From a bacterium (GTDB lineage Bacteria > Patescibacteriota > Minisyncoccia > Phycocordibacterales > UBA1006), in NCBI GenBank assembly GCA_037144045.1, contig JBAWXN010000001.1, forward strand, positions 66,487-130,486: 64,000 nucleotides of DNA, in the 5' to 3' direction. Both the position numbers and the translations under genes were made by a program. Numbering within the stretch: the stretch's first letter is position 1; the number at the start of each line of letters is the position of its first letter. This document shows positions 15,485-63,562 of the stretch, in pieces. A model generated the notes under the pieces. The model saw nothing but the letters and a program-made list of their open reading frames with translations, did not search any database and had not been told where the DNA came from.

Positions 15485-15512
15485 GCATTCTTATTAACCT
15501 CATCACTCAACT

Positions 15513-18500
15513 ATGAATACTAAAGATCATACAACATTCACCCCAGATACGATTTCACTTTCATTAGCATCACCAGAACGCATTCGCGAATGGTCATACG
15601 GTGAAGTATTGAAGCCAGAAACTATTAACTATCGAACCGGTCGTTCTGAACGAGGCGGGCTTTTCGACGAAAAAGTGTTCGGTCCTGAAAAAGACTACGA
15701 ATGTTACTGTGGAAAATATAAGCGCATTCGTTACGCAGGTATTGTGTGTGAAAAATGTGGCGTAGAAGTTACGAAAGCTATCGTACGTCGTGAACGTATG
15801 GGGCATATTGAACTTGCGTCTCCGGTTGCACACATCTGGTTCTTGCGAGGAATTCCATCACGAATGTCAACATTGCTTGATATTCCTATTAATCAACTCG
15901 AAAAAGTAATTTACTTTGCGGGGTACATTGTTACTGAAATTCATCAATCTGAAAAAGATCGTGTTTTGAAGGAACTTGATAACGAATACAAGATTCGAAT
16001 GAAGACGTTGGATACCGATGAAGAAAAAGACAAATTGAAAGACCTCTTTTCATCAACCAAAAAAGACTTGGTAGATTTATTACCATGGCGTATTTTAACA
16101 GAAGTTGAATTCCACAAGTTTTCAATGAAATTCAGTACCGTGTTTGAAGCATCGATTGGTGCAGAAGCGGTATACGAAGTATTTAAAAAACTTGATTTAA
16201 ATGAACTTGCAGCAACCCTCGAAAAAAAGCTTGAAAAAGACCCTGCAGCTCGTGAACGTATTGAACGACGGTTGCACATGATTCGTGCATTGATTGCGTC
16301 TAACCAACGTCCTGAATGGATGTTCCTTACTGCAATTCCAGTGATTCCTCCAGCTTTACGACCGATGGTGGCTCTTGAAGGTGGGCGTCATGCAACATCA
16401 GACGTAAACGATTTGTACCGTCGTGTAATTAATCGAAACTCTCGATTGAAGAAACTGAAAGAAATTGGTGCGCCGGATGTTATCTTGCGAAACGAAAAGC
16501 GTATCTTGCAAGAAGCATGTGACTCATTGATTGATAACACAATTCGAAAACACTCAGGATCAGTTGCGATGTCACAAGCACAGCGACGACAATTGAAATC
16601 ACTTGCCGATTCATTGAAAGGAAAGCAAGGTATTTTGCGTGCGAACCTCCTTGGAAAGCGTGTAGACTATTCTGGACGTTCGGTAATTGTGGTAGGTCCA
16701 AGTTTGAAATTGAATCAATGTGGACTTCCTAAATTTATGGCACTTGAATTGTTCCGACCATTCGTTATTTCAAAAATCTTGAAACGAGAATTGGCATATA
16801 ACATTCGTGGTGCTGGAAAGCTTATCGAAGACGGAGCTCCAGAAGTTTGGGAAATCCTTGAAGAAGTAATTGACGGAAAATATGTATTGTTGAACCGTGC
16901 TCCTACGCTTCATCGATTGTCTATTCAAGCATTCAACCCAGTACTTATCGAAGGTAAGGCGATCCAGGTGCACCCATTGGTATGTTCAGCGTTTAACGCT
17001 GACTTCGACGGGGACCAGATGGCGGTACATGTACCTCTTTCAGAAGAAGCACAAATCGAAGCACGAGAATTAATTGCGTCAAATAAAAACCTCCTTAAAC
17101 CACAATCAGGGGATCCGGTTACACAACCATCACAAGACATTGCGCTTGGATGTTACTGGGCAACAAAAATTGTTCCTGGAGTACTTGGTGAAGGAAAAAT
17201 GTTCTCAAGTCCAGAAGAAGCGGTAACAGCTTACGATCATAATATTATTGATGTGCGATCAAAAATCTACGTGTTGCCAAATGATAGTCAAAAATATGCA
17301 GCATTTGAAGGAAAAGTATTTGAAACCAGTGTTGGACGAATTTTGTTTAACAATGTATGGCCTGATGACTTTGAATTCGTAAACAGTGAAGTAAACAAAA
17401 AAGCCGTTTCAAATATTTTGGAAACTGCTATCAATAAATATGGTTTTGATGCAACAACACCATTATTGGATACGGTGAAAATGTTTGGATATAAATTTGC
17501 AACTAAATCAGGAACCACAATTGGTATCGACGATGCATTGGTTCCACCTGAAAAGAAAGATATTATTATCGAAGCTCGAAAGGTTGAAGCACAAATTGTA
17601 GATCAGTTCATGGACGGACTTATTTCAGATGATGAACGTTACAACAAATTGATTGAACTTTGGGAAGGAGTTACTCGAAAAATTGAAAAAGCAATTGTAA
17701 GTCATTTGGCTGAATCTGAATCTATTCATGACCAGATTACATCAGGTGCTCGTGGTAACCCTGCACAGTTACGACAAATGGCAGGTATGAAAGGGGTAAT
17801 TGTAAACACCGCTGGACGACCAGTAGATTTCCCGATTATTGCTTCATATAAAGAAGGACTTTCACCAATTGAATACTTCATTACGAACCACGGATCACGA
17901 AAAGGGCTTACTGACACCGCGCTTAACACAGCTACTGCTGGATACATGACTCGAAAGTTGGTTATTGTAGCGCAGGACGTAGTAATCCTTGAAGAAGACT
18001 GTGGAACGAAAAAAGGAATGACGGTCAAGGCTGAAAATATCGATGGTATGCTGCGCCCAATTTCTAAAAACATTGTAGGACGCGTACTCGCAGAAACCGT
18101 TAAAGACGCTACAGGATCCGTATTGTTCAAGCGAGGTCACTTGATTGGACGTGAAGACGGAAAGGTTATCGATGAAGCAAAAATTGCAGAAGTGGTAATT
18201 CGATCACCGCTTACCTGTGATACATTACATGGAATTTGTCAGCAATGTTATGGACTCGATCTTGGACGAAACAAGATGGTGAAATACGGAGAAGCAGTAG
18301 GAATTGTTGCGGCTCAAGCTATTGGTGAACCAGGAACACAGCTTACACTGCGAACAATGCACGGAGGAGGGGTAGTAGGAAACGATATTACTGCCGGGCT
18401 TCCACGTGTAGCCGAATTGTTTGAATGTCGTGCGATTAAAATCCCTGCGGTTATTTCAGAAACCAAGGGTCAAGTAATTGAAATTAAAAATGATGGGGTG

Positions 18501-24147: not shown

Positions 24148-24161
24148 ATAATGGGTACGTG

Positions 24162-24234
24162 AGCCGCTTCCCAGATTCGAACTGGGGACCTTCACTTTAC
24201 AAAAGTGTTGCTCTACCAACTGAGCTAAAGCGGC
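24162..24234 (-). tRNA. tRNA-Thr (anticodon UGU)
   Basis: Reverse complement GCCGCTTTAGCTCAGTTGGTAGAGCAACACTTTTGTAAAGTGAAGGTCCCCAGTTCGAATCTGGGAAGCGGCT has a 7-bp acceptor stem, D-arm GCTC/GAGC, anticodon loop TTTGTAA and T-arm CCCAG-TTCGAAT-CTGGG. CCA is not encoded. Confidence 0.85.
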
Positions 24235-34958: not shown

Positions 34959-35272
34959 AAGCTTCGTCACTTTTTAAATCGGTACAAGCCAAGTAATCCC
35001 CATGTTGGCAAGCGGAAATCGCTTGCATTTTATATGGGCATTTGCTATGATGGCTTTCGTCTCGCTAAAAAGCAGGCAATTGTATTTTGTCAACAGAAGC
35101 AAATCCGATTCACAAGAAATGTGTGAATGCGGATAGATTATGCATCTCATGTTCGAAGCAGAAGATTTTAAATTCTTTTGTTTCGTTCTATGAGAATACA
35201 AAACTGGAAGGTTCAATAAATTTTTACAAGAAACTTTATTGGGCATCAACTTCCTGTTTATTCTTTTTTAGT

Positions 35273-36835
<1,563 letters not shown>

Positions 36836-46721: not shown

Positions 46722-47795
46722 TTGTTGAAAACAAACAAACAAAACAAACGTTCTATGGCAAAAGTAAACATTACGTTCAAACCAAAACAGACTACCAAAA
46801 AGCTCCTTAAGGGGCTTCAAGACCGTGCGTCAGAAGTGATCGTGAACCGATTTGGCTTGAATGACAGTGGTGAACAACAAACACTTGAATCAATTGGTCA
46901 AAAATATGGCATTACTCGTGAACGAGTACGTCAAATTGAAAACTTCGCTCTTAATGCAATTAAAAAATCAGACTCATTCCATGAAGCAGAAGAAATCTTT
47001 AAAGAGCTTAAAGATGTTATTCAAACTCTTGGAGGAATTGTTTCAGAAGAAGAACTCCTTCCTATGCTTTCAAAGGATCAAGTAACTCAAAATCATATTG
47101 GGTTATACCTCGCATTGGGGAACGATTTTGCTGAAGCAAAAGAAGATGCTCATTTCAAGAAGCGATGGATTGTTGATGGATACACTGCAGAACGAGTACA
47201 CAAAGCTCTCCTTGATATTCATGGAGCCCTTGCATCAGAAGACCTTATTTCAGAATCTGAAATGATCGACAAAGTGTTGTGTCATGATGGTATCTGCGAA
47301 ATCACTTCACATAAAGTGGATAATGAAATGGCTGGCCGATGGTTGAACATTTCTAAGTCACTTGCAAAGAATCCTTTGGGTGAATGGGGACGCGCAACAT
47401 CACCTAATGTGAAAACTCGAGGAATCAAGGACTATGCGTACTTGGTAATGCGACGTCACGGTTCACCTATGCACTTTCGCGAAGTTGCAGAGGCAATCGA
47501 AAAAACATTTGGTAAGAAAACTCACACCGCAACCTGTCACAATGAATTGATTAAAGATGCTCGATTCGTCCTAGTAGGACGAGGAGTATACGCACTCAAA
47601 GAATGGGGATACACTGCAGGAGTAGTTCGTGAAGTAATTGAACAGATCTTGAAAAAGGACGGTCCAATGACTAAAGACGAAATTATCGAAAAGGTACTTA
47701 AAGAACGCTACCTCAAGAAAAATACTATCTTAGTAAACTTGATGAATCCTAAGTATTTTAAAAAAGACAAAAACGGACTCTATAGTGCCGCATAA
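46722..47795 (+). CDS. DNA-binding protein: N-terminal sigma-70 region-4-like HTH fused to C-terminal HARE-HTH (RNAP delta-subunit-like) domain
   Basis: VNRFGLNDSGEQQTLESIGQKYGITRERVRQIENFALNAIKK closely parallels region 4.2 of this genome's own rpoD. The C-terminal YLVMRRHGSPMHFREVAEAIEK...RFVLVGRGVYALKEW resembles HARE-HTH. An alternative start is the Met at 46755. Confidence 0.55.
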   Translation: MLKTNKQNKRSMAKVNITFKPKQTTKKLLKGLQDRASEVIVNRFGLNDSGEQQTLESIGQKYGITRERVRQIENFALNAIKKSDSFHEAEEIFKELKDVIQTLGGIVSEEELLPMLSKDQVTQNHIGLYLALGNDFAEAKEDAHFKKRWIVDGYTAERVHKALLDIHGALASEDLISESEMIDKVLCHDGICEITSHKVDNEMAGRWLNISKSLAKNPLGEWGRATSPNVKTRGIKDYAYLVMRRHGSPMHFREVAEAIEKTFGKKTHTATCHNELIKDARFVLVGRGVYALKEWGYTAGVVREVIEQILKKDGPMTKDEIIEKVLKERYLKKNTILVNLMNPKYFKKDKNGLYSAA

Positions 47796-51027: not shown

Positions 51028-51678
51028 ATGGCAGAAACGAAGCAAGAGCCTTACTCAACCAAGGTTCCCAAGAAGCTCAGGGCGCTATCAAAACAAAATC
51101 ATCATCGAAAGTCGATTGTGAGTATCTTCAAGTCATTGGTGTCATTTTCCTACCAGCGTGAACTAGCTCAATACGTAGTATTGGTTTTAGAAATAATTCA
51201 CAACTTGATTACTTTAATCAAGAGACCAGGAAAAAAGTACCTTAATACAATTCTTGAAGCTACACAAACAGCACTACAACTTGAAGATGGTGATGATGAT
51301 GTTTCTGATAATAGTGTCCCCCATTCGCCACTAGGAAAGCAGCAATATGTTGCAGTAGTAGGCGGATTATCTATCAATAGTAATCAGTGTATTAAATTAC
51401 TTCAAACACAGGGAAGACTCACTAAACAGAATATTCGTATCTGTGATGACATTGAGCGATTCAAAAGTGGTACGTACACTGAAGTACTAACGAGTCAAAA
51501 TTGTGTAGGCATTATCTTGGGTCCTATCCCGCATTCACATAATGAAAACGTTGAAAAAGTGCTTTTGCATAAAATCGTATACGCACGAAATAATAGTAGT
51601 ACTCATGGTAAGTTGAGTCTTACCAAAGCTTCTATTACTCGCGCTATTGAAGAATTAAAACAAAGAAAAATTATTTAA
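51028..51678 (+). CDS. hypothetical protein (216 aa)
   Basis: Intact ORF preceded by an extended -10 (tggtataaaat) and followed by a terminator. Confidence 0.4.
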   Translation: MAETKQEPYSTKVPKKLRALSKQNHHRKSIVSIFKSLVSFSYQRELAQYVVLVLEIIHNLITLIKRPGKKYLNTILEATQTALQLEDGDDDVSDNSVPHSPLGKQQYVAVVGGLSINSNQCIKLLQTQGRLTKQNIRICDDIERFKSGTYTEVLTSQNCVGIILGPIPHSHNENVEKVLLHKIVYARNNSSTHGKLSLTKASITRAIEELKQRKII

Positions 51679-51733: not shown

Positions 51734-52810
51734 ATGTTTACGTGGTTGTCAAAACAGATAAAACCAGGAATCGGGAAAAAAGTATTCGTAGGAGTTTCGG
51801 GAGGGGTTGATTCCTCGGTGGCGCTTGCGTTACTTCAAGACCAAGGCTATGACGTAGTCGGGGTTTTTATTCGTACCTGGCAACCTGATTTTATTGAATG
51901 TACGTGGCGTGATGAACGACGCGATGCCATGCGGGTGTGTGCACATCTAGGTGTTCCATTTGTCGAGCTTGATTTAGAGCATGAATATAAAGAAGGAGTT
52001 GCTGATTATATGATTGCAGAATATAAAAAAGGTCGAACCCCTAATCCTGACGTGATGTGTAACCGAGAAGTAAAGTTCGGGGGATTTTTAACGTGGGCAC
52101 TTGCACAAGGTGCTGATTATGTAGCGACGGGGCACTATGCGCAAAATAATAATGGTGAACTTGTGAAGGGAATTGATCAATCAAAAGACCAGTCTTATTT
52201 TTTATGGACATTAACCCCTGAGCAGTTGAAACATATTTTGTTTCCTGTGGGAAATTTACCTAAGACCAAGGTACGCAAACTTGCGCGGAAATATCGTTTA
52301 CCGACAGCGGTAAAAAAAGATTCCCAGGGAGTATGTTTTATTGGCGAGATTGATATGAAGGAATTTTTGAAGCATTACATCGGATCGGATACAGGGCTAG
52401 TGACCAATGAGCACGGTGAAGTTGTTGGACAACATGAAGGGGTGTTGTTGTATACACTAGGTGAGCGTCATGGGTTTACTATTACCAAGAAGACAACTTC
52501 GGATAAACCTTATTATGTTATTGCAAAAGATATTAAAAATAATAAATTAGTAGTTTCGCAGAATCCTCAATCAACAGTCATAGATAGTCAGGTTCACCTC
52601 GAGCAATGCGTGTGGCGTGTTCATCCTAATTCGAAACAGTATACTGTTCAAATTAGGTACCACGGTGCACTTAAAGAAGTACATATGAGTCATGTAACTA
52701 ATACAAACGCGTTAGTTCACTTTACTGAATCGGATTTTTCATTAGCTCCTGGTCAATCCGTGGTAATTTTTGACGGTGCGGTATGTATTGGAGGAGGTAT
52801 TGTTGCCTAG
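51734..52810 (+). CDS. mnmA: tRNA-specific 2-thiouridylase MnmA
   Basis: PP-loop VFVGVSGGVDSSVALALL, catalytic Cys region and C-terminal beta-barrel. Confidence 0.85.
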   Translation: MFTWLSKQIKPGIGKKVFVGVSGGVDSSVALALLQDQGYDVVGVFIRTWQPDFIECTWRDERRDAMRVCAHLGVPFVELDLEHEYKEGVADYMIAEYKKGRTPNPDVMCNREVKFGGFLTWALAQGADYVATGHYAQNNNGELVKGIDQSKDQSYFLWTLTPEQLKHILFPVGNLPKTKVRKLARKYRLPTAVKKDSQGVCFIGEIDMKEFLKHYIGSDTGLVTNEHGEVVGQHEGVLLYTLGERHGFTITKKTTSDKPYYVIAKDIKNNKLVVSQNPQSTVIDSQVHLEQCVWRVHPNSKQYTVQIRYHGALKEVHMSHVTNTNALVHFTESDFSLAPGQSVVIFDGAVCIGGGIVA

Positions 52811-52848
52811 TGCGTTTCTTTTTTAAAATAGTTTGCTATAGTGGTCCC

Positions 52849-53904
52849 ATGAAGTTGGCAAAGAAAATTCTTATCATAGGCATGCTTGCCTTTTGTTGTA
52901 TCGGAATAGTGTTTACGGGAGTGTTTATTGCAATGCAGTTTGGGTGGTTAAATGTGAGGGGAACAATCGCCGAGAGAAACAATTCAATATACAGCGCAAG
53001 GCTACTGGTAAAAAATAAATCCACATCAAATGATGATTCACAAGCAGTGATTTTATGTAAAATTCATGCATTATCAAATATGGCACCTGAAACGGCGCGG
53101 AATATTTATAATACGTATCAAGTGAAGCAGGATAGTATTTTGATCAATCAAATGCTTGATGTTGCACAGAAAAGGTTTTTAGATACGAACCTTCCTACCG
53201 TGTTTACCACATGTGCGCATGCATTAATTCCTGACACAACACCGCTCGCACAAAGCGCTTTTGCTTGGGCAGATTCGCAAGAATGGGGTGTGATTCGTTC
53301 AGCATTTATTCGTGATCAAGATATTATTCGACAAGCAGCAAAAGATGCAGGAATTTCACCGCGATTACTCCTCGGGGGAATCATTGGTGAACAGTTTAGA
53401 TTTTTCACGAATTCACGCGATACGTTTAAATCATATTTTGAACCATTAAAAATTTTGGCATCGCTCTCAAAATTTTCGTATGGAATTGCAGGGCTTAAAC
53501 CAGAAACAGCATTGCGTGTCGAGCAAAATCTAAAAAATCCAGAATCAGTGTTCTATTTAGGTAAAGATATGGAAAACGTTATTACATATCCAGAAGGGAG
53601 TATCGAAGACACGGTACGTTTTGATAGAATTACTGATACTAAAAATACCTACTATTCCTATTTGTACGCGGGATTGTTTATGCGCCAAGTAATGGCACAA
53701 TGGAAAAAATCAGGATATGATATTTCTAATCGTCCTGAAGTATTATCGACATTGTACAATCTTGGATTTAATCGTTCGATACCTAAAGCTGATCCAGGTG
53801 CAGGTGGTGCACCGATCACAGTGAATGGAATTGAATATAATTTTGGACAACTTGGTTATGAATTTTATTATTCAGGTGAACTCTCGCAGGAATTTCCTTA
53901 TTGA
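52849..53904 (+). CDS. hypothetical membrane-anchored protein (352 aa)
   Basis: Starts at MKLAKKILIIGMLAFCCIGIVF (TM helix); the ORF track's 52783 start overlaps mnmA. No motif recognised. Confidence 0.45.
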   Translation: MKLAKKILIIGMLAFCCIGIVFTGVFIAMQFGWLNVRGTIAERNNSIYSARLLVKNKSTSNDDSQAVILCKIHALSNMAPETARNIYNTYQVKQDSILINQMLDVAQKRFLDTNLPTVFTTCAHALIPDTTPLAQSAFAWADSQEWGVIRSAFIRDQDIIRQAAKDAGISPRLLLGGIIGEQFRFFTNSRDTFKSYFEPLKILASLSKFSYGIAGLKPETALRVEQNLKNPESVFYLGKDMENVITYPEGSIEDTVRFDRITDTKNTYYSYLYAGLFMRQVMAQWKKSGYDISNRPEVLSTLYNLGFNRSIPKADPGAGGAPITVNGIEYNFGQLGYEFYYSGELSQEFPY

Positions 53905-54591: not shown

Positions 54592-55758
54592 ATGAAACAG
54601 GATGTAAACTTAGATGTGGGAAACAGCTTCAGTGCTTTTGCTCATAGAATTAATCAGGGTTCTTATTTTAACTCTCCATTTGTAACAGTAAAAGAGAGTG
54701 AGATAGGGGGGTTCCGTAGTTCTAAAGGATATCGTTTGCAAGGATTGCCAGTAGATATCTGGAACACGGCAGGCATGGACGGTATTGGAACTAAAGTGCT
54801 TATATCAGACGCAGCCAAAATGTATGAAACATCTGCAGCAGATTTAGTTGCAATGGTTTGTGGAGATATTACTCGAAAAGGAGGATTACCTCTCATTATG
54901 ATGAATGTGCTTAATGTAGCATCCCTAGACACTCATGAGTATATTACTGCAGCGCAGCAGCTCATGCGTGGATTGGGTGAATATGCAAAACAGCAGCACC
55001 TAGTACTTTTTAATGGTGAAACCGCAGAGCTTAAAGGTTTAGGGTTAGCTGATTCAGCACCACAGTTCAGTTATTTATGGGAATCTGCCGGTATTGGTGT
55101 GTTTCGTGAATCAACTGAAATTACTGGGGCATCAATTCGTCCCGGTCAAACCATAATTGCTTTTCAGGACAAAAGTCCTGGGAGTAATGGTATTACCGAA
55201 CTTCGAAGAGGACTTGCAAAAATGCATGGAACTGAATGGTGGAATAATCCTGACGCAGTAAGTGATATTGCAGCTGCGGCCATGCCTTGCACTCTGTATG
55301 ATAGATTTTTAACTCACCTTAACGGGTGGTATAACAATGACTTCGTACCTACTATTAAAGTACATGGAATAGCTCATATTTCCGGAGGAGGTATCCCTGA
55401 TAAACTTGCAGGTGATTTACTCTTTTCTCAAGGGTATGGAGCTGATCTGGATAACCTCTTTGATCCGCCTGCTATTTTCCAAAAAGTTGCAAAGGCTCGC
55501 GAAATCGATTTTTCTACCATGAAAAATCGCGACTATTTGAAACGGTTGTATGATATGTGGCATGGTGGACAACGTCTTCTTGTTATTGTTGATGAGCAAG
55601 ATGTTGATCTGTGTTTACAAATTGCAGTAAAACATAATCTGGTGGCACAAATAGCAGGTGTTGTAACGGATACTCCGGTACTCAAAATAAAGTCTAAGTA
55701 TGAACTATATAATGACTTTGAAATACTATTTGATTCGGACGATCTTGTTCGGATTTAA
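54592..55758 (+). CDS. AIR-synthase-related (PurM-like) protein
   Basis: DGIGTKV and DLVAMVCGDI blocks align with PurM (DGVGTKL, DLVAMCVNDL). GETAELKG also fits. Length 388 aa. Confidence 0.6.
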   Translation: MKQDVNLDVGNSFSAFAHRINQGSYFNSPFVTVKESEIGGFRSSKGYRLQGLPVDIWNTAGMDGIGTKVLISDAAKMYETSAADLVAMVCGDITRKGGLPLIMMNVLNVASLDTHEYITAAQQLMRGLGEYAKQQHLVLFNGETAELKGLGLADSAPQFSYLWESAGIGVFRESTEITGASIRPGQTIIAFQDKSPGSNGITELRRGLAKMHGTEWWNNPDAVSDIAAAAMPCTLYDRFLTHLNGWYNNDFVPTIKVHGIAHISGGGIPDKLAGDLLFSQGYGADLDNLFDPPAIFQKVAKAREIDFSTMKNRDYLKRLYDMWHGGQRLLVIVDEQDVDLCLQIAVKHNLVAQIAGVVTDTPVLKIKSKYELYNDFEILFDSDDLVRI

Positions 55759-55823: not shown

Positions 55824-57563
55824 ATGTTGTCATCAGAAATCCGCTTTCGATTCCTCGAATTCTTTAAAAAACGAGGGCATGCTATTTTACCTTCAGCTTC
55901 ACTCGTTCCTGAAAATGACCCTTCGGTGCTTTTTAATACTGCGGGAATGCAACCCCTGGTTCCTTATTTAATGGGGCAAAAACATCCATTAGGAACTCGT
56001 TTAGCAAGTGCACAAAAATGTGTACGTACGGGTGATATTGAAGAAGTCGGTAACCATAAAAACCTGACCTTTTTTGAAATGCTGGGAAATTGGTCACTTG
56101 GCGATTATTTCAAAGAGGAAGCGATTGCGTGGAGTTACGAATTTCTCACAAGTAAAAAAGAAGGGCTTGGATTTGATCCTGCACGACTTTATGTAACCGT
56201 GTTTGAAGGTGATGATGATGCGCCTCGTGATTTAGAAGCGGTAGAAATTTGGAAAAAATATATTCCTGAAAACCGTATCTATTTTTTGCCTAAGAAAAAC
56301 AACTGGTGGAGTCCTGGTGACAATGGTCCATGTGGTCCAGACACTGAAATGTTTTATGATGTAACTCCTCATGGATTAGGTGATATGACTCATGACGAAT
56401 ATGTAACAGCTGATGACCAGGGGGAGGTGGTTGAAATTTGGAATGATGTATTCATGGAATACGAGAAAAAAGACGGATCGGTAATCGGAAAGCTTTCTCA
56501 AAAAAATGTAGACACAGGCTCTGGATTAGAACGAGTTACCATGATTGTTCAAGGGAAATCTAATGTATACGATTGTGATTTATTTGCACCTGCAATGAGT
56601 TACATTAAAGAACATTCTGTAAATTATTCTGAACGTGCAGCACGAATCGTGGCTGATCATTTACGCAGTAGTTTGTTTATGGTAGGTGATGGGGTATTTC
56701 CATCAAATAAAGATCAAGGATATATTGTGCGTCGTTTAGTACGTCGTGCTGCAGTGCAGGCCCAGAAGCTTGGATTGCCAGATGCTGCGCTTGCAGAGAT
56801 TTTGAAATTATTCCAAGGTGTTTATGGTGACTCGTATACTGAGATACAACCAGTAACAGTAATTGAAACTATTTTAAATGAAATAAATAAATTTCAGAAA
56901 ACTATCACGGCTGGACTTAAAGAATTTGCCAAAGGGGTGGAACCGTTCCTTTTAGCGACAACCTATGGATTTCCTATTGAACTTACCGAAGAACTTGCGT
57001 TAGAACAAGGAATTACTATCGATCGGCAAAAGTTCGATGAGCAAATGACAGAACATCAGGCGAAATCACGCGCAGGGGCCGAACAGAAATTTAAAGGGGG
57101 GCTCGGTGGAACATCTGACAAAATTGTACGTTCACATACAGCGCATCATTTATTACTTGCCGCATTACGTAAAGTACTTGGTGAACACGTACATCAACGA
57201 GGAAGTAATATTACCGAAGAACGTATTCGTATCGATTTTGCCCATGATACAAAAATGACCGATGAACAAAAAACAGCGGTTGAACAGCAGGTTAATGAAT
57301 GGATCAAAGCAGACCTTCCTATGCAGCGTGTTGAAATGCCGCGCGCAGCAGCTGAAACGATAGGTGCTGAAATGGAATTTGGTATTAAATATCCCGATAC
57401 TGTTTCTGTTTACTATATTGGATCTGATCTAGACCATGCCATCTCAAAAGAATTCTGTGGTGGTCCTCATAGTGACCATACTGGAATTATTGGAATGTTT
57501 AAGATTCAAAAAGAAGAAGCATCATCATCGGGGGTTCGTAGAATTAAAGCAGTTATTGAATAA
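55824..57563 (+). CDS. alaS: alanyl-tRNA synthetase, C-terminally short form (catalytic, tRNA-recognition and editing domains)
   Basis: AlaRS N-terminal block FFKKRGHAILPSASLVP..., GNWSLGDYFK, editing-site HTAHHLL...CGGPH. Only 579 aa. Confidence 0.85.
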   Translation: MLSSEIRFRFLEFFKKRGHAILPSASLVPENDPSVLFNTAGMQPLVPYLMGQKHPLGTRLASAQKCVRTGDIEEVGNHKNLTFFEMLGNWSLGDYFKEEAIAWSYEFLTSKKEGLGFDPARLYVTVFEGDDDAPRDLEAVEIWKKYIPENRIYFLPKKNNWWSPGDNGPCGPDTEMFYDVTPHGLGDMTHDEYVTADDQGEVVEIWNDVFMEYEKKDGSVIGKLSQKNVDTGSGLERVTMIVQGKSNVYDCDLFAPAMSYIKEHSVNYSERAARIVADHLRSSLFMVGDGVFPSNKDQGYIVRRLVRRAAVQAQKLGLPDAALAEILKLFQGVYGDSYTEIQPVTVIETILNEINKFQKTITAGLKEFAKGVEPFLLATTYGFPIELTEELALEQGITIDRQKFDEQMTEHQAKSRAGAEQKFKGGLGGTSDKIVRSHTAHHLLLAALRKVLGEHVHQRGSNITEERIRIDFAHDTKMTDEQKTAVEQQVNEWIKADLPMQRVEMPRAAAETIGAEMEFGIKYPDTVSVYYIGSDLDHAISKEFCGGPHSDHTGIIGMFKIQKEEASSSGVRRIKAVIE

Positions 57564-57565
57564 AA

Positions 57566-57592
57566 ACCCGAAAGGGATTTTATTCTTGCATT
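57566..57592 (+). terminator. rho-independent terminator
   Basis: aaaaacccgaaagggattttattc. Confidence 0.7.
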
Positions 57593-57628
57593 ACTCATTC
57601 ATTCCTTGATATAATCTATTGTATTATT

Positions 57629-60025
57629 ATGCAACCTTTCTTTCGCAAAACCCTCACGGTTTCTTTTTCACTCCTCAGTATCCTCGGCTACGGCCTCTTC
57701 GTCTTCGCCGCAGCACCAACGGGAGGCTACCTTCCCGCTCAAACTCTCAACCCTAATTGTGCACCCGGAGACACAGATTGTTTCGTAAAGGCACTCGTTG
57801 TAACAACCAGTAGTACCTACAACTGGATAGGGGAAGGTTCAGGAGACAATGGGGGTTCAACTGACAACACGGTATTCATTGGTATTGGAGCAGGAGACAA
57901 TGCAGACAACGCAGATTACTCTAACTTCGTAGGAACAGGAGCAGGAGAGAACGCAACGAACGCGAACAACTCTAACTTCTTCGGACAACTCGCTGGATGT
58001 AATGCAACCAATGCAGACAATGCTAACTTCTTCGGACAAGAAGCAGGATGTTATGCAACCAACGCAAACAACGCTAACTTCTTCGGTTACCGTTCTGGTT
58101 ACCAAGCTACGAACGCAGACCACTCTACGTTCTTCGGAGACGAAGCAGGTATTAACGCATCTTCTGCGTATTCTTCATCGTTTGTTGGATCTTCTGCGGG
58201 AGCGAATGCGACTAATGCGTACCAATCTAACTTCTTCGGAAGTGATGCGGGTTATGGGGCAGTGAACGCCAATGATTCATCTTTCCTAGGATACCGAGCG
58301 GGGTATGAGGCGACGGATGCAACATCGTCGTTCTTTGCAGGGAACCAAGCGGGGTACCAGGCATATGGAGCAGACACTTCAGTGTTTATTGGTAACCAGG
58401 CGGGATACAACGATTCAGGAACTCTTGATTTCCTTACGGCTGCTTCAAATCCATTTGGGATTTCTGGCGGATCTAATTTTATTGGAGTTCAAGCTGGATA
58501 CGGAGCCGAAGGTGCTGTACAGTCTACATTTATGGGGACACAGGCAGGATACAAAGCCAATACAGCATTGGGATCAACTGTTATTGGATTTCTAGCAGGT
58601 AGTAATGCTAATTACTCAACTTCCCTAACACCAACCCTAGAAGCATCGGTAGTACTTGGTGCACTTGCTGGGTCTAATACTCAACGTACTAGTACTAATG
58701 TTATTATTGGAAATACTGCGGGTACAGAACTTAATTTCGCAAAAAGTTCGGTACTTATTGGTAACGCCTCTGGAAAAAATGGGGCAACCATTTTTGGAAC
58801 GTTAGGAATAGGTGGGGGAGCACTTCAAGATTCTATGCGTATTAATGAGAGTGTTATTCTCGGAAGAGGTACTGCTTCAAATGCGTCCGATATTAATAAT
58901 GCGGTCATTGTTGGTGCTAATGCAGCCTCTAGTTCTGCAATTGGAAATAGTTTAACTAGAGTAAATTATACACCAGTTTCCGGAACGTTTATCCCAGGTG
59001 AAACAATTATTGGTATGCCGAGCAATTTTTACGCACGAGTTATCACTGATAATGGATCACAACTGGAAATTGACTATTTATATACCAGTTACAACCCAGG
59101 AGAAACAATCACTGGGCAAGATTCAGGTGCTATCGCAACGGTTACCTCAGTAATACAAGGGACAACTACAATACTTATTGGAACAAATACATTTAGTAAT
59201 GGATATCAAGATTCTATTGCGTTAGGTACTGGTGCGAGTAATTCATCTAATAACCAACTCATGATCGGTTCTCAAACTTCACCCATCAACGAAGTCCGCA
59301 TCGAACAAGCAGGAGGAACCAACTGTACGATCACCAGCATCGGACTCAACTGTACGTCAGACGAAAACTTAAAAACCAACATTGCTGACCTTTCACCTAA
59401 CGTCCTTGATCCACTCAGTAGAGTACGTACCGTAACTTACAATTGGAAATCACAGCCAAGTGGTAAGCGTATGATTGGATTCTTGGCTCAAGACCTTGAA
59501 CAGTATTTCCCTGAACTCGTTACTACTGATAGTAAAGGTCAGAAATCAGTAAACTACGCCAACATCACCCCAGTATTGGTTGAAGCGGTGAGAGAGCTTA
59601 ATGTGAAGTTAATGAATATAAATACGTCAGCACAAAAAATCCTCGAAGATGAAGGATTCTTGTCAGGGTTACGTAATTGGCTTGCAAGTACCACTAACGG
59701 TATTACGCAAATCGTTGCAAATACGTTTACTGGTCAAAAAGTAGAAGTCCAGCAGTTATGTGTTGGGACTACGTGTCTTAATCAAGACCAAGTAGATCAA
59801 ATTATTCGAGTAGTAAATCAATCAGCCGGGGCAGTTCCTATTGTTTCGCCAAGTCCTACGCCATCAGGAACAACTACTGACGATAGTGCTGCACCTGATT
59901 CAGGTTCTAGTACTACAACAGATGGTAGTAGTACCGACGGAGTACCTACGGCTCCCGAGGTTGTACCTCCGCCTACTGTTCCAGATCCTGTACCTGAGGA
60001 AAATCCTCCGGTGGAAGGTGTTTAA
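57629..60025 (+). CDS. secreted tail-fibre-like repeat protein with C-terminal peptidase-S74 intramolecular-chaperone domain and Pro/Thr-rich tail
   Basis: Signal peptide. About 15 degenerate 17-18-aa repeats (SNFFGxxAGxxATNAxN). S74/chaperone-of-endosialidase-like block LKTNIADLSPNVLDPLSRVRTVTYNWKS...RMIGFLAQDLEQYFPELV...VNYANITPVLVEAVRELNVKL. Then PT-rich C-terminus. Confidence 0.65.
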   Translation: MQPFFRKTLTVSFSLLSILGYGLFVFAAAPTGGYLPAQTLNPNCAPGDTDCFVKALVVTTSSTYNWIGEGSGDNGGSTDNTVFIGIGAGDNADNADYSNFVGTGAGENATNANNSNFFGQLAGCNATNADNANFFGQEAGCYATNANNANFFGYRSGYQATNADHSTFFGDEAGINASSAYSSSFVGSSAGANATNAYQSNFFGSDAGYGAVNANDSSFLGYRAGYEATDATSSFFAGNQAGYQAYGADTSVFIGNQAGYNDSGTLDFLTAASNPFGISGGSNFIGVQAGYGAEGAVQSTFMGTQAGYKANTALGSTVIGFLAGSNANYSTSLTPTLEASVVLGALAGSNTQRTSTNVIIGNTAGTELNFAKSSVLIGNASGKNGATIFGTLGIGGGALQDSMRINESVILGRGTASNASDINNAVIVGANAASSSAIGNSLTRVNYTPVSGTFIPGETIIGMPSNFYARVITDNGSQLEIDYLYTSYNPGETITGQDSGAIATVTSVIQGTTTILIGTNTFSNGYQDSIALGTGASNSSNNQLMIGSQTSPINEVRIEQAGGTNCTITSIGLNCTSDENLKTNIADLSPNVLDPLSRVRTVTYNWKSQPSGKRMIGFLAQDLEQYFPELVTTDSKGQKSVNYANITPVLVEAVRELNVKLMNINTSAQKILEDEGFLSGLRNWLASTTNGITQIVANTFTGQKVEVQQLCVGTTCLNQDQVDQIIRVVNQSAGAVPIVSPSPTPSGTTTDDSAAPDSGSSTTTDGSSTDGVPTAPEVVPPPTVPDPVPEENPPVEGV
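57890..58420 (+). repeat. tandem ~54-bp coding repeats inside the tail-fibre-like gene
   Basis: Recurrent units such as aacgc(a/g)aacaa(c/t)gctaacttcttcgga...gcagg...gcaac(c/g)aa(c/t)gca are visible in the sequence. Confidence 0.6.
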
Positions 60026-61007
60026 AAAAGTCTTCGACATAGGGATACATAGTATCGCCAGCAAGAAATACGATATCAATAGTTCCTGTAGTGTTTCGGA
60101 GTTCGTTTAAATTACCAGCTTGTTTTCTGGATTTAATATATGAATAAATACCAGCAAGTTGCATACCTGTTGAAGGTCCTACAAATAAACCTAAACGAAT
60201 CATTTTCAAAGCCAGCGCATATGCTGGTTTTGTTGTTATGGGAATTTCTTTATCTACAACTTGTTGCCAAGGGAAAGCTAATTTTTTTACTGCAATTTCA
60301 CCGCGGGGTCCTGGAATACTTGATCCGTCTTTGATTGATATTCCGACTACTTGGATTTTTTTATTTTTATTTTTAAAGAATCGCCCTAATCCATATATAG
60401 TTCCACTGGTACCGATACTGTTAACAATTACGGAAATATTTTTACCTAACTGTTTCCATAATTCCGCGGCGATATATTTTTCTGATCCGTTTGGATTTGC
60501 AGGTGTTGTGTACTGGTTAAAATTATGCCAACCCCTTTTCTTACCTAATTGTTGCGCGTTCCAAATACCTCCCACAGTATCATATACGCCCGGACTTGAA
60601 GGTCCGTCGGTAATTAATAACTGAGTTCCCACAAGTTGCAGTATTCGTTTTTTATACTCAGGAACATCAGGTGTTATAAGAGCATGAGTATGAGGGATAC
60701 CAAAATATTGTGCGAGAATTGTTAAAGAAAGTACTGTGTTTCCAGATGAATATTCCACAAGGTGTTTTATTGAGTTTACTTGCTCCAATGGGAGACTGTC
60801 GAGCATGTTCCGTGCTGGAATTGATTTAATATTAGTAAGGGGTAGTTGATTCATTAGTTTCACAAAAATGCGCACCTTGTCTTTTGTAAATGGATTGAGG
60901 GATTGAGGTAGTTCAACTAAAGGGAGTGGTCCGCACGACCCCGGCGTTAAATAATCAAAGAGTGCATTGTTTCCAGTAAAAATATGATGAGTGTTGTTAT
61001 TGGTCAT
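59973..61007 (-). CDS. PLP-dependent cysteine-synthase-family (PALP fold type II) enzyme
   Basis: PLP-lysine block NIKSIPARNML (compare CysK SVKCRIGANMI), SGNTVLSLTILAQYFGIP, and Gly-rich loop NSIGTSGTIYGLGRFFK. A TATACT -10 lies directly upstream of the ATG. Confidence 0.65.
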   Translation of the reverse strand: MTNNNTHHIFTGNNALFDYLTPGSCGPLPLVELPQSLNPFTKDKVRIFVKLMNQLPLTNIKSIPARNMLDSLPLEQVNSIKHLVEYSSGNTVLSLTILAQYFGIPHTHALITPDVPEYKKRILQLVGTQLLITDGPSSPGVYDTVGGIWNAQQLGKKRGWHNFNQYTTPANPNGSEKYIAAELWKQLGKNISVIVNSIGTSGTIYGLGRFFKNKNKKIQVVGISIKDGSSIPGPRGEIAVKKLAFPWQQVVDKEIPITTKPAYALALKMIRLGLFVGPSTGMQLAGIYSYIKSRKQAGNLNELRNTTGTIDIVFLAGDTMYPYVEDFFKHLPPEDFPQVQDLEQ

Positions 61008-61110
61008 ATTTTGAGTATAAAACTACACAAACCGTATGGTTGTGTATAAAAAAACTAAAAAAGTTAACATGAGGCGTGTCAAAAAAAATATTCTGATATA
61101 TAATACAGTC

Positions 61111-62262
61111 ATGTTTTCATTCTTGAAAAAGAAACCTCAAGACGAGCAGGTGCACCTCGTGTGTTTGGTGACGAGTTACGCGGTAACCGCTGCGGTGGTT
61201 AAGGTGTTTACTCGACAAGAATCGGTACAAGAACCCGTCTTGTTATTTTCATGTGAATCAATTATTCCTATTCGTGACGGCTTTGATTATCGTGCCAATG
61301 CATCGTTAACTTATGATGCTATCAAGTATGCACTCAATAAATGCCGAGCGTTTAATCCGGTGTACGATAAACTCTATTGCAGTATCGGTGAACCGTGGAC
61401 GACCAGTATGACGCGTACGGCTCATCTTGAAAAACGTGAAGCATTTTCACTGACCCAGAAAGTTATTGATGATTTGGTTACTCGTGAATCAAAATTATTT
61501 GAACAAGAAGTAGCTCGGATGTATGCGGGTTCAGAAGAAGTAGGGCTGCTTCAGGTTTCGAAGCCGCTTATTGATGCGAATGGGTATCGTATAGCAAATC
61601 CAATGAACGCATTAGTTGCGTCAGTTGATGTACATAGTACGTTTTCATTAGTATCCCTTAGTTTCATAGATGGTGTTGTTGGAGTTTTTGTCGACGTGTT
61701 TCATCGAACCGATATCCAATTTACATCATTCGATTTAGCAAAAAGCGCGCTGTTAAACGATTATGATCACGGCACCGTGGTTGAAATGGGAGGTGATACT
61801 ATTTCTATAGTAATTAAACAAGGAGGGGTGCCTACACTGTTCGCAGCCATTCCTGAAGGATTGCATCGTTTCGAGATTGCATTAATGCAATTATTCGACG
61901 TACCGCAGAAGAAAATTCCTCAAGTACTGTCATTTGTAGGCGATGAAAATATTATTGAACACGAACGAGAACGGTATTACCATCGTATTGTTCGTGCGTA
62001 TGAAGAAATCAGTCCTGCAATTGCACTGAGAGCAATTGATATTAAGAAGCATGTGCAACAGCTTCCTGAACCAGTGGTGGTTATTGGTCATCCGGAATGG
62101 GTTGATGTGCTTAAGGTACCCCTTGAAAAAGACCTCGGTTCACGTGTTATTATTCCTCGGCATGATTTGTTCCGTGATCAAGTTATTATAAGTCATCAAG
62201 CACACGTGATTACTAATTCATTACTTCTTGCAGTAATGCATGCAATTCGTTATGAAAAATAA
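61111..62262 (+). CDS. hypothetical protein, possibly actin-like ATPase fold (PilM/FtsA-like)
   Basis: Two segments resemble actin-fold phosphate loops (VHLVCLVTSYAV, VVEMGGDTISIV). The assignment is tentative. Start is set at MFSFLKKK after a TATATAAT at ~61097; the ORF track starts at 61036. Confidence 0.35.
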   Translation: MFSFLKKKPQDEQVHLVCLVTSYAVTAAVVKVFTRQESVQEPVLLFSCESIIPIRDGFDYRANASLTYDAIKYALNKCRAFNPVYDKLYCSIGEPWTTSMTRTAHLEKREAFSLTQKVIDDLVTRESKLFEQEVARMYAGSEEVGLLQVSKPLIDANGYRIANPMNALVASVDVHSTFSLVSLSFIDGVVGVFVDVFHRTDIQFTSFDLAKSALLNDYDHGTVVEMGGDTISIVIKQGGVPTLFAAIPEGLHRFEIALMQLFDVPQKKIPQVLSFVGDENIIEHERERYYHRIVRAYEEISPAIALRAIDIKKHVQQLPEPVVVIGHPEWVDVLKVPLEKDLGSRVIIPRHDLFRDQVIISHQAHVITNSLLLAVMHAIRYEK

Positions 62263-63562
62263 CAAAAAAATAATGTCAGATATGGTGGCAGTTGCGCGAC
62301 CTAAGAAAAAAACGATTACGAAACCAGAAGTACCTGTAGTAGTGCATAAACAGTCTACTCGTAGTGAACGGTATCATGATCCTCAAGAGGAAGAGGTTGA
62401 TGAAATTATTGAAAATAGTCCTCGAACATTTGTCCAGGAACCACCTCGAGTAGGGTGTGCTCTTTGGTTTACGGGAATTATTTGTCTGGGATTACTCGCA
62501 CTAGTAATTGGTGGTGTTATTGCACGAACCGAAGTTGTGGTTACTCCTCAACAATATACTGGCACAGTCGACATAGCTACAACCCTTACACAGACCAATA
62601 CACAAGGTGCTATCCGATTCTATACCGCAACACAATCATTTTCAGATAAGCAAGTGATTCCGACACAGACAGTAGTTGCACGTGAATCACGAGCAACGGG
62701 GACAGTACGTTTCTATAACAGTCTAGGTCAGTCTAAAACTATCCCTGCAAAAACAATTATTAAAAGCTCGACAGCAACAGGGGTCATGGTTGCATACCAA
62801 ACCAAAACGGCAATAACGGTGCCTCCTGCTAAAAACAAACAACCAGGTCAAAAGGATGTAGGAATTATTGCAGTAGACGTAGGAGCTCAGGCAAATATTG
62901 GATTAAATGATTTTGTACTCGCAAACCCACTACCAGGGATACTTATTCGTTCGGTAACTGAAATGACCGGTGGTGCACAAGGATCAGATAAGATTGCGGA
63001 TCCTGTACTCGTTGCGTCAGCACGCGAAACCTTGGGACAAAATCTTAGTATTACAGAGGAGATGGTGCAACGACTCAAAGAAGAGTTACCTAAAGATATG
63101 ATTGTCCTTCCAATAACGTTTGCAGATACGGTTCCTGTTATTACCTTGGAATCTAACCATGAAGACGGAGTTCATGTAGTTGCACGTAAGGCAGTCACCA
63201 TAATTATGGTAAAACGAGGAGACCTTGCACGATTAATCGGGGATCGTTTAAATGCTCCCAAAGGTGAATTATTAACGATTTCGAGTCTCGACGGCTTATC
63301 TATAGCCTCTGGAGCGCTTGCAAGTCCTCAAGATATTCCACAAACAATTACGATACGTATAACCGGCACTGCAAACATTATGGGGGCAATTGAAACGTAT
63401 AACGTGCCAGTCAATCTGAAGGGTCTTTCTCGAGTTGAAGCCCGCAACGCAGTCCTTGCGCGCCCTGAAGTGGCGAGTGTAGATATCCACATGACCCCTT
63501 TTTGGAGACGAATTTTGCCCCTTGACGCAGAAAAAATTTCGGTCACAGTTACAAACCCTTAG
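62240..63562 (+). CDS. hypothetical single-pass membrane protein (440 aa)
   Basis: Cytoplasmic basic N-terminus, one TM helix (ALWFTGIICLGLLALVIGGVI), then a large Thr/Val-rich extracytoplasmic domain. Overlaps the upstream gene's stop. Start uncertain (Mets at 62240, 62252, 62273). Confidence 0.45.
   Translation: MQFVMKNNKKIMSDMVAVARPKKKTITKPEVPVVVHKQSTRSERYHDPQEEEVDEIIENSPRTFVQEPPRVGCALWFTGIICLGLLALVIGGVIARTEVVVTPQQYTGTVDIATTLTQTNTQGAIRFYTATQSFSDKQVIPTQTVVARESRATGTVRFYNSLGQSKTIPAKTIIKSSTATGVMVAYQTKTAITVPPAKNKQPGQKDVGIIAVDVGAQANIGLNDFVLANPLPGILIRSVTEMTGGAQGSDKIADPVLVASARETLGQNLSITEEMVQRLKEELPKDMIVLPITFADTVPVITLESNHEDGVHVVARKAVTIIMVKRGDLARLIGDRLNAPKGELLTISSLDGLSIASGALASPQDIPQTITIRITGTANIMGAIETYNVPVNLKGLSRVEARNAVLARPEVASVDIHMTPFWRRILPLDAEKISVTVTNP

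Follow-up and report, generated by a model that had tools for sequence, protein, structure and literature searches.

The window analysed here, a 64,000-nucleotide stretch of DNA from a member of the Patescibacteria (CPR), carries a complete open reading frame on the forward strand (57629..60025, stop codon included) that starts with ATG and encodes a protein of 798 amino acids, referred to below as the fibre precursor. The closest relative in the databases is 50% identical, no identical protein is recorded there, and 417 homologues are found at E<=1e-3. On its 5' side lies the gene for a short AlaS (579 amino acids) and on its 3' side a convergent gene for a PALP (PLP-dependent) enzyme, which matches the placement between alaS and a cysteine-synthase-like gene given in an earlier, sequence-only reading. 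More distant neighbours are YceG, RNase T, MnmA, MgtC, UvrA, UvrB, 16S rRNA and IF-1. An assignment to Saccharibacteria based on the 16S rRNA was rejected, as the TM7905 probe site has 3 mismatches, and the lineage is given here as Patescibacteria only. Among the flanking open reading frames at ~33-64 kb of the window, none belongs to a phage structural family or matches a structural PHROG, and these flanks consist of housekeeping genes. A phmmer search against all six-frame open reading frames of the window finds no paralogue of the fibre. The homologue loci examined are also chromosomal, with housekeeping flanks and no adjoining phage structural gene, which upholds the initial view that the gene is not part of a prophage.

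The fibre and PALP genes occupy a segment (57564..61035, no strand assigned) that is missing at the matching junction, between alaS and a 408-amino-acid open reading frame, of a related genome (locus L014). There, AlaS (13816-15585) is directly adjoined by a homologue of the window open reading frame 61036-62262. Only this locus and one other (L025) are syntenic with the window, and in both a fibre paralogue sits instead between a HARE-HTH gene and the YceG block. In none of the related loci does a fibre gene follow alaS, and the idea of a conserved placement there was rejected.

A promoter-like element can be read from the sequence just upstream of the fibre gene (57586..57615, + strand). It combines a weak -35 hexamer, TTGCAT (57586-57591), an 18-nt spacer and a perfect extended -10 element, TGATATAAT (57607-57615), whose end is 14 nt from the ATG, implying a very short leader. 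A consensus scan missed the element because its -35 hexamer is weak. The perfect extended -10 together with TTGCAT makes it plausible that the gene has its own promoter, as the sequence-only reading proposed. The terminator proposed with it is not supported. Terminator-like matches are no more frequent than chance would give (4 seen, 3.3 expected). The best hairpin (60207-60232) falls within the PALP open reading frame, which itself shares 53 bp (59973-60025) with that of the fibre.

Residues 1-27 of the precursor (57629..57709, + strand) resemble a signal peptide, with R6/K7, a hydrophobic core at residues 9-29 and a VFA|A site after which cleavage probably occurs. This is the sole hydrophobic segment of the fibre (KD19 of 1.97 at residue 11; the next best value is 1.31), and the AF2 model places a helix at residues 4-22. 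A signal-like N-terminal pattern is present in 62 of 121 family members, and many of the others are N-terminal fragments. The next module, residues 28-82 (57710..57874, + strand), has the motif P.GGY.P...L(D/N)P.C.PG...C with the Cys44/Cys51 pair. It is 53% identical to the closest homologues, its motif recurs in 45 of the 121 members, and it is a candidate for the cell-proximal end of the fibre. All eight cysteines of the protein fall into four near-neighbour pairs, and an even number of cysteines is found in 95 of the 121 members. The hydrophobic N-terminus with its family-conserved VFA|A site and the paired cysteines argue for an extracytoplasmic location.

The body of the protein, residues 83-435 (57875..58933, + strand), is predicted to be a beta-solenoid of ~20 coils built from a 17-residue repeat, in which Cys124 and Cys141 are separated by exactly one coil. 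The regular expression [FVILM][FVILMA]G..[AS]G finds 17 repeat units at residues 83-392, spaced by exactly 17 residues save for two insertions and with the consensus SxFxGxxAGYNAxNAxx. The ~15 tandem repeats of 17-18 residues noticed in the sequence-only reading are real and are counted here as 17 strict units. In the AF2 model there is one short strand per 17 residues up to about residue 430. Only 2.6 copies of the corresponding 51-bp unit are still recognisable in the DNA (57953-58086, 83% matches), which marks the repeats as old and diverged.

The repeats had also been described as being of the phage tail-fibre type, a description that their sequence does not support. By themselves they have no Pfam match at E<=10 and no PHROG match at E<=1, and they occur in 49 of 80 cellular loci compared to 2 of 80 viral S74 loci. 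A phage origin of the repeats was rejected on the basis of a tblastn search of 50,697 phage records, which yields only three matches, all weak and partial. One locus (L160) is a genuine phage fragment with terminase and portal genes, and its fibre carries a weak version of the repeat. The modelled solenoid resembles the passengers of autotransporter adhesins, and its highest-identity structural matches are adhesin heads (18-20%). The fold is equally typical of polysaccharide-degrading enzymes, which counts against reading the protein as an adhesin. The structure model is an AF2 monomer only (mean pLDDT 70.8, pTM 0.52), a kind of prediction that can mislead for trimeric fibres.

The solenoid is interrupted by an insert, residues 436-512 (58934..59164, + strand), with an internally duplicated unit (F..GE.I.G..SGA.A.V) that is modelled as a small six-stranded beta-barrel. 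This insert would be a variable domain close to the predicted C-terminal, distal end of the mature protein. The distal half as a whole (residues 271-512) is 37-40% identical to close homologues, whereas the N-terminal half and the chaperone core are 53-66% identical. The last solenoid coils (NSIALG.., NQLMIGS) and a neck follow at residues 513-576 (59165..59356, + strand), ending at T576, the predicted new C-terminus. Both members of the Cys566/Cys575 pair in the neck are invariant or nearly so in the family alignment, and a neck HMM detects 47 of 80 cellular loci compared to 1 of 80 viral loci. Neither the repeat region, the insert nor the C-terminal tail has a meaningful match in Pfam (E<=10) or PHROGs (E<=1), and the whole protein has none in NCBIfam. 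PHROG matches are confined to the C-terminus of the fibre, and the N-terminal 440 residues match nothing.

The C-terminal part does contain the self-cleaving chaperone domain that the sequence-only reading had recognised. Pfam PF13884 (Peptidase_S74) matches residues 577-632 over the full length of its model (1-58; E 3e-15, 56.7 bits against a gathering score of 22). The S74/ICA intramolecular chaperone core extends over residues 577-668 (59357..59632, + strand), including the start of a long C-terminal helix that the AF2 model places at residues 643-686, and is the most conserved module of the protein (66%). Profile comparisons of the core with the PDB recover 8jov (5e-15), 6f45 (4e-10), 3gud (1e-4) and 7dc3 (1.4e-3). 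The predicted fold matches the chaperone domains of MyRF ICA, gp12 and endoNF; Foldseek, run with the monomer model, ranks 7dc3 at the top with a probability of 1.00 and a TM of 0.62 on the target, followed by 3gud and 3gw6.

The domain begins with the catalytic motif S577-D-E-N-L-K582 (59357..59374, + strand), so that the predicted scissile bond is T576|S577. S577, D578, K582 and a GF.AQ motif are invariant in two family alignments, A1 and A2 (31 and 29 sequences, respectively), which bears out the expectation of a Ser-Lys dyad, and the strict dyad motif is present in 89 of 121 homologues. In the released chaperone chain of phi29 gp12 (3gud), the position aligned with S577 is residue 1. The dyad lysine lies five residues past the scissile serine, a spacing shared with T5 pb1, which is cut at Thr1263-Ser1264 and uses Lys1269 (PMC4690869), and with MYRF, whose dyad is S578/K583 (PMC3742443). 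The oxyanion-hole arginine, supplied in T5 and K1F by a neighbouring chain, has no invariant counterpart here. At the candidate position R557, 20 residues ahead of S577, about half of the sequences in A1 have Arg or Lys and the others a hydrophobic residue. Sequence conservation and the model together suggest that the S577/K582 dyad cleaves its own chain at T576|S577.

Beyond the Pfam match lie 166 residues, the last 63 of them rich in Pro, Thr, Val and Ser, and this extension had at first seemed unusual. It is not. The Pfam model stops 58 residues into a chaperone domain that is ~100-135 amino acids long, so that ~35-55 of the residues past the match constitute the chaperone's own helix, while the rest form a conserved family module and an acidic Pro/Thr tail. 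The distance from the catalytic serine to the C-terminus is 222 amino acids here compared to a family median of 210.

This lineage-specific post-chaperone add-on (residues ~669-735; 59633..59833, + strand) is characterised by W(L/F)....NGI, a Cys711-x4-Cys716 hairpin and a short helix, and its modelled structure is of low confidence (pLDDT 43-61). Sequence matches from the PDB and tblastn matches from IMG/VR end by about residue 680, with one IMG/VR exception (L117). An HMM of the add-on detects 60 of 80 cellular loci and none of 80 viral S74 loci. A collection of 1.84 billion cluster representatives includes 3,174 that carry the add-on, and in these the dyad lies a median of 93 amino acids upstream of it. 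Two homologues (P0166 and P0180) carry an Ig-like surface domain in the region after the chaperone. The conserved add-on, together with these Ig-like domains, implies that a pure 'disposable chaperone' model is insufficient. The proposal that the add-on also follows a second type of chaperone in two homologues (P0199 and P0219), which we took to be Peptidase_G2, was dropped, since Pfam has no match there and did not bear it out.

The protein ends in a disordered acidic tail, residues 736-798 (59834..60022, + strand), that is rich in Pro, Thr, Ser and Val and contains no basic residues. Across the family the tail has a median length of 63 amino acids and a composition of 16% P, 14% E, 13% T, 11% S and 11% D. 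No transmembrane segment follows the dyad either in the query (the maximum KD19 past residue 577 is 0.85) or in the 94 dyad-bearing members, and a MYRF-like C-terminal membrane tether was therefore rejected. Sortase anchoring was also rejected, because the query lacks LPxTG, this motif follows the dyad in just 1 of the 94 members, and the tail is acidic with no basic residue. Nothing that could anchor the query to a cell was recognised, be it a sortase motif, a transmembrane segment past the signal peptide or a known wall-binding domain.

The family is large, multi-copy, cellular and drawn almost entirely from the Patescibacteria. At least nine assemblies carry two to four copies among the best 80 loci, confirming that related genomes harbour paralogues. 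Family members contain between 6 and 39 repeats, and the gene occupies different positions inside a conserved backbone shared by related genomes. A gene for a secreted VWA+SdrD_B protein lies near the fibre gene at 19 of 80 loci, in 15 cases directly downstream on the same strand; the present window has no VWA neighbour. No paper was found in the literature search that describes this family in Patescibacteria, be it the repeats, the add-on or what the proteins do.

The reading favoured here, to which we assign a probability of about 0.6, is that the gene product matures into an extracytoplasmic, self-cleaving trimeric fibre of the Patescibacteria cell, whose variable distal half binds a target. 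The signal peptide would lead the chain through Sec and would probably be removed after VFA. As the established behaviour of S74 domains suggests, three chains would then join via their C-terminal chaperone domains, which would serve as the folding template for the neck and for three beta-solenoids of ~20 coils apiece, with 17 residues per coil. Once the trimer has folded correctly, S577, activated by K582, is expected from the invariance of these residues to cut the T576-S577 bond and free a 222-residue fragment composed of the chaperone core, add-on and acidic tail. The mature fibre would comprise ~549 residues (28-576) held by near-neighbour disulfides. Its conserved N-terminal end would face the cell, and the variable distal half (residues 271-512), with the beta-barrel insert, would point outward and may recognise a ligand carried by a partner cell or by a surface. 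A role in adhesion is plausible from this context, making the protein a candidate for attaching to other cells. The export signals, the paired cysteines, the adhesin-like solenoid, the variable distal half and the VWA/SdrD_B neighbours in related loci form the circumstantial case for such a role. The family appears to have taken the chaperone domain alone from the phage world and then to have added its own modules. Points that weigh against the favoured reading are the variable residue at R557, the lack of a recognised anchor, the conserved add-on on the fragment that would be discarded and the absence of a VWA neighbour from the window.

Other functions could be served by an exported solenoid of this kind. 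It might be a structural part of the envelope, such as a fibrillar coat or an S-layer-associated spike, that protects or spaces without binding a specific ligand. Export signals, paired cysteines, a large multi-copy family in organisms with unusual envelopes and the lack of a recognisable ligand-binding domain would all suit this role, which we nevertheless judge unlikely: no S-layer or wall-binding domain is detected, and the variable position and copy number among related genomes and the fast divergence of the distal half fit interaction surfaces better. A shade less credible is an enzymatic role, in which the secreted protein would cut or modify polysaccharides in the capsule or wall of a host, as a tailspike-like depolymerase, lyase or epimerase would, and use S74 for trimer assembly only. 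The solenoid fold would permit it, but identity to such enzymes is 5-11%, below that to the adhesin heads, and no glycoside-hydrolase or lyase family is detected. Gly, Ala and Asn recur very regularly in the solenoid repeat, and its consensus has no conserved acidic cluster.

The chaperone might instead stay uncleaved as a permanent C-terminal trimerisation knot, with the add-on and Pro/Thr tail forming a stalk that spans the wall and leaves the N-terminus distal. Pro/Thr-rich segments often cross cell walls, and the region after the chaperone is conserved and at times includes Ig-like surface domains. However, the S-x4-K dyad is kept throughout the family, either unchanged or with conservative substitutions, arguing that catalysis is maintained; the dyad-bearing members lack a C-terminal anchor (no transmembrane segment in any of the 94, LPxTG in one); and it is the N-terminal half that is conserved, contrary to the pattern expected if that end were distal and did the binding. 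This arrangement is decidedly improbable. Least credible, and by our estimate very improbable, is that the gene is a phage tail fibre gene that the cell does not use, whether left over from a decayed prophage or recently captured from a CPR phage. An S74 domain is typical of phage fibres, PHROG tail-fibre families match the C-terminus, the phage fragment mentioned above has a weak version of the repeat, and the gene is an insertion relative to L014. Yet phage structural genes are found neither among the scanned open reading frames (~33-64 kb) nor beside the examined homologues, the signal peptide and disulfide pattern are a misfit with cytoplasmic virion assembly, the open reading frame is intact and preceded by a strong -10 element, and thousands of cellular relatives have modules absent from viral loci.

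The means by which ultrasmall episymbiotic bacteria recognise a host and stay attached to it are still poorly understood. Two reports implicate type IV pili and unnamed 'adhesins' in host attachment of cultivated episymbionts (PMC10633639, PMC12206443). The fibre family is a concrete candidate, recognisable from sequence and represented by thousands of Patescibacteria proteins, with a maturation chemistry that is clear and testable and a distal-region diversity that could be mapped onto host range. A more tentative proposal is that Patescibacteria reuse the receptor-binding strategy of phages, such that this multi-copy, rapidly diverging family of self-cleaving trimeric fibres would be a main determinant of host choice by episymbionts, together with type IV pili and often a VWA adhesin. 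The add-on and acidic tail might then form a new assembly or tethering device by which a phage-type chaperone can function outside the cytoplasm. The post-chaperone module is newly defined here, and no description of it was found in the searched literature.

Several known proteins resemble the window fibre in part. Patescibacteria MAG entries that NCBI automatically names 'Tail fiber domain-containing protein' (P0008, P0014, P0049, P0058 and others) belong to the same family and have the same architecture; the name merely reflects their match to the S74 domain. Autotransporter adhesins, both the type Va passenger beta-helices (Vag8, pertactin, Ag43, TibA) and the trimeric heads (YadA-like; UspA1, CbpF), are close counterparts of the solenoid. 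Unlike these, the window fibre, from a cell that is presumably monoderm, has no beta-barrel translocator or YadA anchor and ends in S74, add-on and disordered tail. It has no Hep_Hag or HIM match in Pfam, its repeat period is 17 residues and its assembly would depend on the S74 chaperone.

The S74 domains of phages (K1F endosialidase 3gw6, phi29 gp12 3gud, T5 pb1 8hqz and S16 gp37 6f45) share with the window fibre the Pfam family, the S-x4-K motif at the domain start, GF.AQ, the predicted fold with its C-terminal helix and a location right after a beta-structured fibre. In contrast to the phage proteins, the window protein is cellular, with a signal peptide and paired cysteines, and lacks a virion-attachment N-terminus. 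Its body is made of a repeat absent from almost all phages, and its domain is followed by an add-on of ~65 residues and an acidic tail, neither of which occurs in the 80 viral loci. That cells can put the phage chaperone domain to use has its precedent in the ICA domain of MYRF/MrfA (7dc3), which has the same dyad and ranks first among the structural matches of the model. In MYRF, a eukaryotic membrane-tethered transcription factor, a transmembrane helix lies downstream of the ICA and cleavage frees the N-terminal part. The window fibre and the 94 dyad-bearing members have no such helix past the dyad. The window protein is predicted to be extracytoplasmic and carries a fibre rather than a DNA-binding domain as cargo. 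Cellular use of this domain, best documented in MYRF, would thus extend to an exported bacterial protein.

The intact open reading frame at window positions 57629-60025 (plus strand) encodes a 798-residue protein that truly belongs to the S74/ICA domain family of intramolecular chaperones. The sequence-only reading had proposed this domain, and PF13884 (Peptidase_S74) matches at full length over residues 577-632 with 56.7 bits, for a gathering score of 22. The catalytic Ser-Lys dyad suggested for inspection is present: S577, D578, K582 and a GF.AQ motif are invariant in two alignments, one comprising 31 C-terminal modules and the other 29 full-length proteins. Of 121 family members, 89 have the motif S[DE]xxxK in its strict form, and the exceptions mostly retain S-x4-K in other spellings. 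Among solved structures, the module profile matches a phage tail fibre (8jov, 5e-15), S16 gp37 (6f45, 4e-10), the chaperone released from phi29 gp12 (3gud, 1e-4; the crystallised chain begins at the residue aligned with S577), and the MyRF ICA domain (7dc3, 1.4e-3). A Foldseek search with the predicted structure recovers these structures as well, and 7dc3 reaches a probability of 1.0 and a TM score of 0.62.

The precursor begins with a signal-peptide-like segment (aa 1-27) that is conserved in the family. It is the sole hydrophobic segment of the protein, preceded by R6/K7 and ending in a VFA/A site. A conserved N-terminal module (aa 28-82; motif P.GGY.P...L(D/N)P.C.PG...C) leads into about 20 coils built from 17-residue repeats (aa 83-435), and an insert separates these from the last coils and neck (aa 513-576). 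In the AF2 model, built from a 29-sequence alignment (mean pLDDT 70.8; 83-92 in the first half), each repeat contributes one short strand. A simple motif search finds 17 units at aa 83-392 (consensus SxFxGxxAGYNAxNAxx) with a period of exactly 17 residues except for two insertions; the sequence-only reading had put them at about 15 repeats of 17-18 residues. The corresponding 51-bp unit is recognisable in only 2.6 copies at the DNA level, so the protein repeat is old and diverged rather than recently expanded. All eight cysteines fall in four near-neighbour pairs (44/51, 124/141, 566/575 and 711/716), with Cys124 and Cys141 separated by exactly one coil, and the cysteine count is even in 95 of the 121 family members. 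Such pairing and the signal peptide both point to an oxidised, extracytoplasmic protein. A unit of about 38 residues from the insert (F..GE.I.G..SGA.A.V) recurs near the N termini of the homologues P0029, P0044 and P0078, visibly in tandem in the first two, and thus resembles a mobile sub-module within the family.

Matches to PDB structures stop near aa 665-670, so that some 35-55 residues past the Pfam match belong to the chaperone's own helix. The chaperone core (aa 577-668) is followed by an add-on (aa 669-735) containing a Cys-x4-Cys hairpin and by an acidic, disordered tail rich in Pro and Thr (aa 736-798). This C-terminal extension had been considered unusual, yet it is typical of the family, whose members have a median of 210 residues between the Ser and the C terminus. 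Repeats, chaperone core and add-on occur together in 88 of 121 homologues, where the remaining tail has a median of 63 residues, with P, E, T, S and D abundant. In an exhaustive profile search, 3,174 cluster representatives carry the add-on (1,236 at E<=1e-10), almost always near the C terminus and with the dyad a median of 93 residues upstream. Two proteins, P0166 (aa 1917-1987) and P0180 (aa 226-297), replace the purely disordered tail with an Ig-like surface domain (PF16403) after S74 and add-on, and the former also has Kelch repeats upstream. The seemingly discarded fragment may thus serve a separate function. Forty-one of the 121 members end in Glu, 21 of them in -TE (for example, PTE, TTE or ATE), which could be a C-terminal signal or an effect of acidic tail composition; the protein studied here ends in PPVEGV.

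Scanning a single genome of each species yielded at least 480 loci. Nearly all of the best 80 come from Patescibacteria MAGs, with labels that include Paceibacterota, Nomurabacteria, Minisyncoccia, Parcubacteria and 'Saccharibacteria'. The homologous loci examined are chromosomal, and the paralogues that the earlier reading proposed to look for exist: at least nine assemblies among these 80 loci carry two to four copies. In 19 of the 80, a secreted protein of adhesin-type architecture is encoded within three genes of the fibre; it has about 650 residues and combines a signal peptide with VWA and SdrD-B-like domains. In 15 of these loci its gene is the next one downstream, in the same orientation (position +1 in L011, L015, L018-L021, L024, L033, L046, L055, L058, L061, L067 and L075). 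The two genes may form an adhesion cassette; the window carries no VWA/SdrD-B gene.

Two related genomes, L014 and L025, share with the window a backbone of a HARE-HTH gene, YceG, RNase T, MnmA, MgtC and AlaS. Their fibre paralogue sits between the HARE-HTH gene and YceG, and in L014 a homologue of window ORF 61036-62262 abuts AlaS. The fibre gene, here with its convergent neighbour, is thus an accessory insertion at a variable site. The alternative site is marked in the window by a 357-aa protein with sigma-70 region-4 and HARE-HTH domains (46722-47795), which is highly conserved in both loci (E ~1e-148). Three ORFs interrupt the window's YceG-to-AlaS block and are missing from both: 51028-51678 (216 aa) and 52783-53904 (373 aa), each without a family, and the AIR-synthase-like 54592-55758 (388 aa). 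Several junctions of the backbone seem to tolerate small insertions, and the fibre gene is not the only one.

Upstream of the fibre ATG, an extended -10 element with a perfect match, TGATATAAT, stops 14 nt short of the start codon. The terminator once assigned to the gene is not supported: terminator-like matches are at chance level, and the convergent ORF for a PLP-dependent enzyme (59973-61007, minus strand) overlaps the fibre ORF by 53 bp (59973-60025), leaving no intergenic room. The view that this is a cellular gene outside any prophage holds, in that phage structural families match none of the flanking ORFs scanned (window ~33-64 kb). These flanks are ordinary chromosomal genes: YceG, RNase T, MnmA, MgtC, an AIR-synthase-like protein, a short AlaS, the PLP-dependent enzyme, IF-1, UvrA, UvrB and 16S rRNA. 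AlaS (55824-57563) has 579 residues, with a catalytic domain at aa 5-423 and a tRNA_SAD domain at aa 527-574; the usual bacterial enzyme is far longer, about 870 aa, and the homologues in L014 and L025 are of similar size to the window's (ORFs of ~589 aa). ORFs 61036-62262 (408 aa) and 62240-63562 (440 aa) match no Pfam or PHROG family. The 16S rRNA gene is complete (35266-36835) and 23S and 5S are absent from the 64-kb window; the rRNA genes appear unlinked. The window's sole tRNA is tRNA-Thr (24161-24234).

In T5 pb1 the Thr1263-Ser1264 bond is cleaved with Lys1269 as base (PMC4690869), and the MYRF dyad is S578/K583 (PMC3742443). The spacing of S577/K582 is identical, which predicts a cut at T576/S577 yielding a mature fibre of about 549 residues and a 222-residue fragment. 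The best-supported reading, with a probability of roughly 0.6, is that the protein is exported by the Patescibacteria cell, forms a trimeric fibre with the help of its chaperone domain, cleaves itself and binds a target through its distal half. We infer cleavage and trimerisation; this architecture and maturation are probable, and the adhesin role is tentative. The oxyanion-hole Arg that a neighbouring chain provides in phage proteins has no invariant counterpart in the alignment of family C-terminal modules. A scan of the sequence found no anchoring device, with neither a TM segment after the signal peptide nor an LPxTG motif, and a purely disposable chaperone would not account for the conserved post-chaperone module. 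Structural matches of the repeat region include autotransporter adhesins and phage tailspikes, with the highest sequence identities (18-20%) to the trimeric-autotransporter heads UspA1 and CbpF. Polysaccharide lyases are also among them. A secreted depolymerase is an improbable reading, as is, a little less so, an envelope fibre without a specific ligand. Less probable again is a C-terminal trimerisation knot that stays uncleaved, with the tail spanning the wall; the S-x4-K dyad is invariant or conservatively respelled across the family.

That the gene is a phage remnant is very improbable. The chaperone core, present in all of 80 viral loci, is the sole module common with viruses. The add-on occurs in 60 of the best 80 cellular S74 loci versus none of the best 80 viral ones, and is thus specific to the cellular lineage. 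The repeats had been likened to those of phage tail fibres, but they occur in 49/80 cellular versus 2/80 viral loci, match no Pfam or PHROG family, and a search of 50,697 phage genomes yielded just three matches, all weak and partial. Some exchange with phages does exist. L160 (IMG/VR contig 3300006752_000637), one of the two viral loci with the repeats, comes from a genuine phage, as its large terminase, portal and GroES-like genes show. The product of its ORF 826-4047 is a fibre of 1,074 residues that has an S74 domain and, in weak form, the 17-residue repeat. This phage may infect Patescibacteria and have fibre modules in common with its hosts. Judged by the defining features of each class, the window protein does not qualify as a phage virion fibre, nor as a trimeric autotransporter, a MYRF-type tethered factor or a sortase substrate.

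Databases already show S74 domains in cellular proteins, and entries of this family are automatically named 'tail fiber domain-containing protein' and nothing else; a literature search found no paper describing the family in Patescibacteria. The previously uncharacterised post-chaperone module is newly defined here, and the fibre offers a concrete candidate, open to test, for how episymbiotic bacteria attach to their hosts. Compared with its 11 closest homologues, the protein is most conserved in the chaperone core (66% identity), followed by the signal peptide (60%), N-terminal coils (58%), neck (54%) and N-terminal module (53%), and falls to 40% in the insert, 37% in the C-terminal coils and 26% in both add-on and tail. 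In the mature protein, the variable half is the one that would become the free end upon the predicted cleavage. The protein resembles phage fibres in this respect, whose distal, receptor-binding end is likewise variable.
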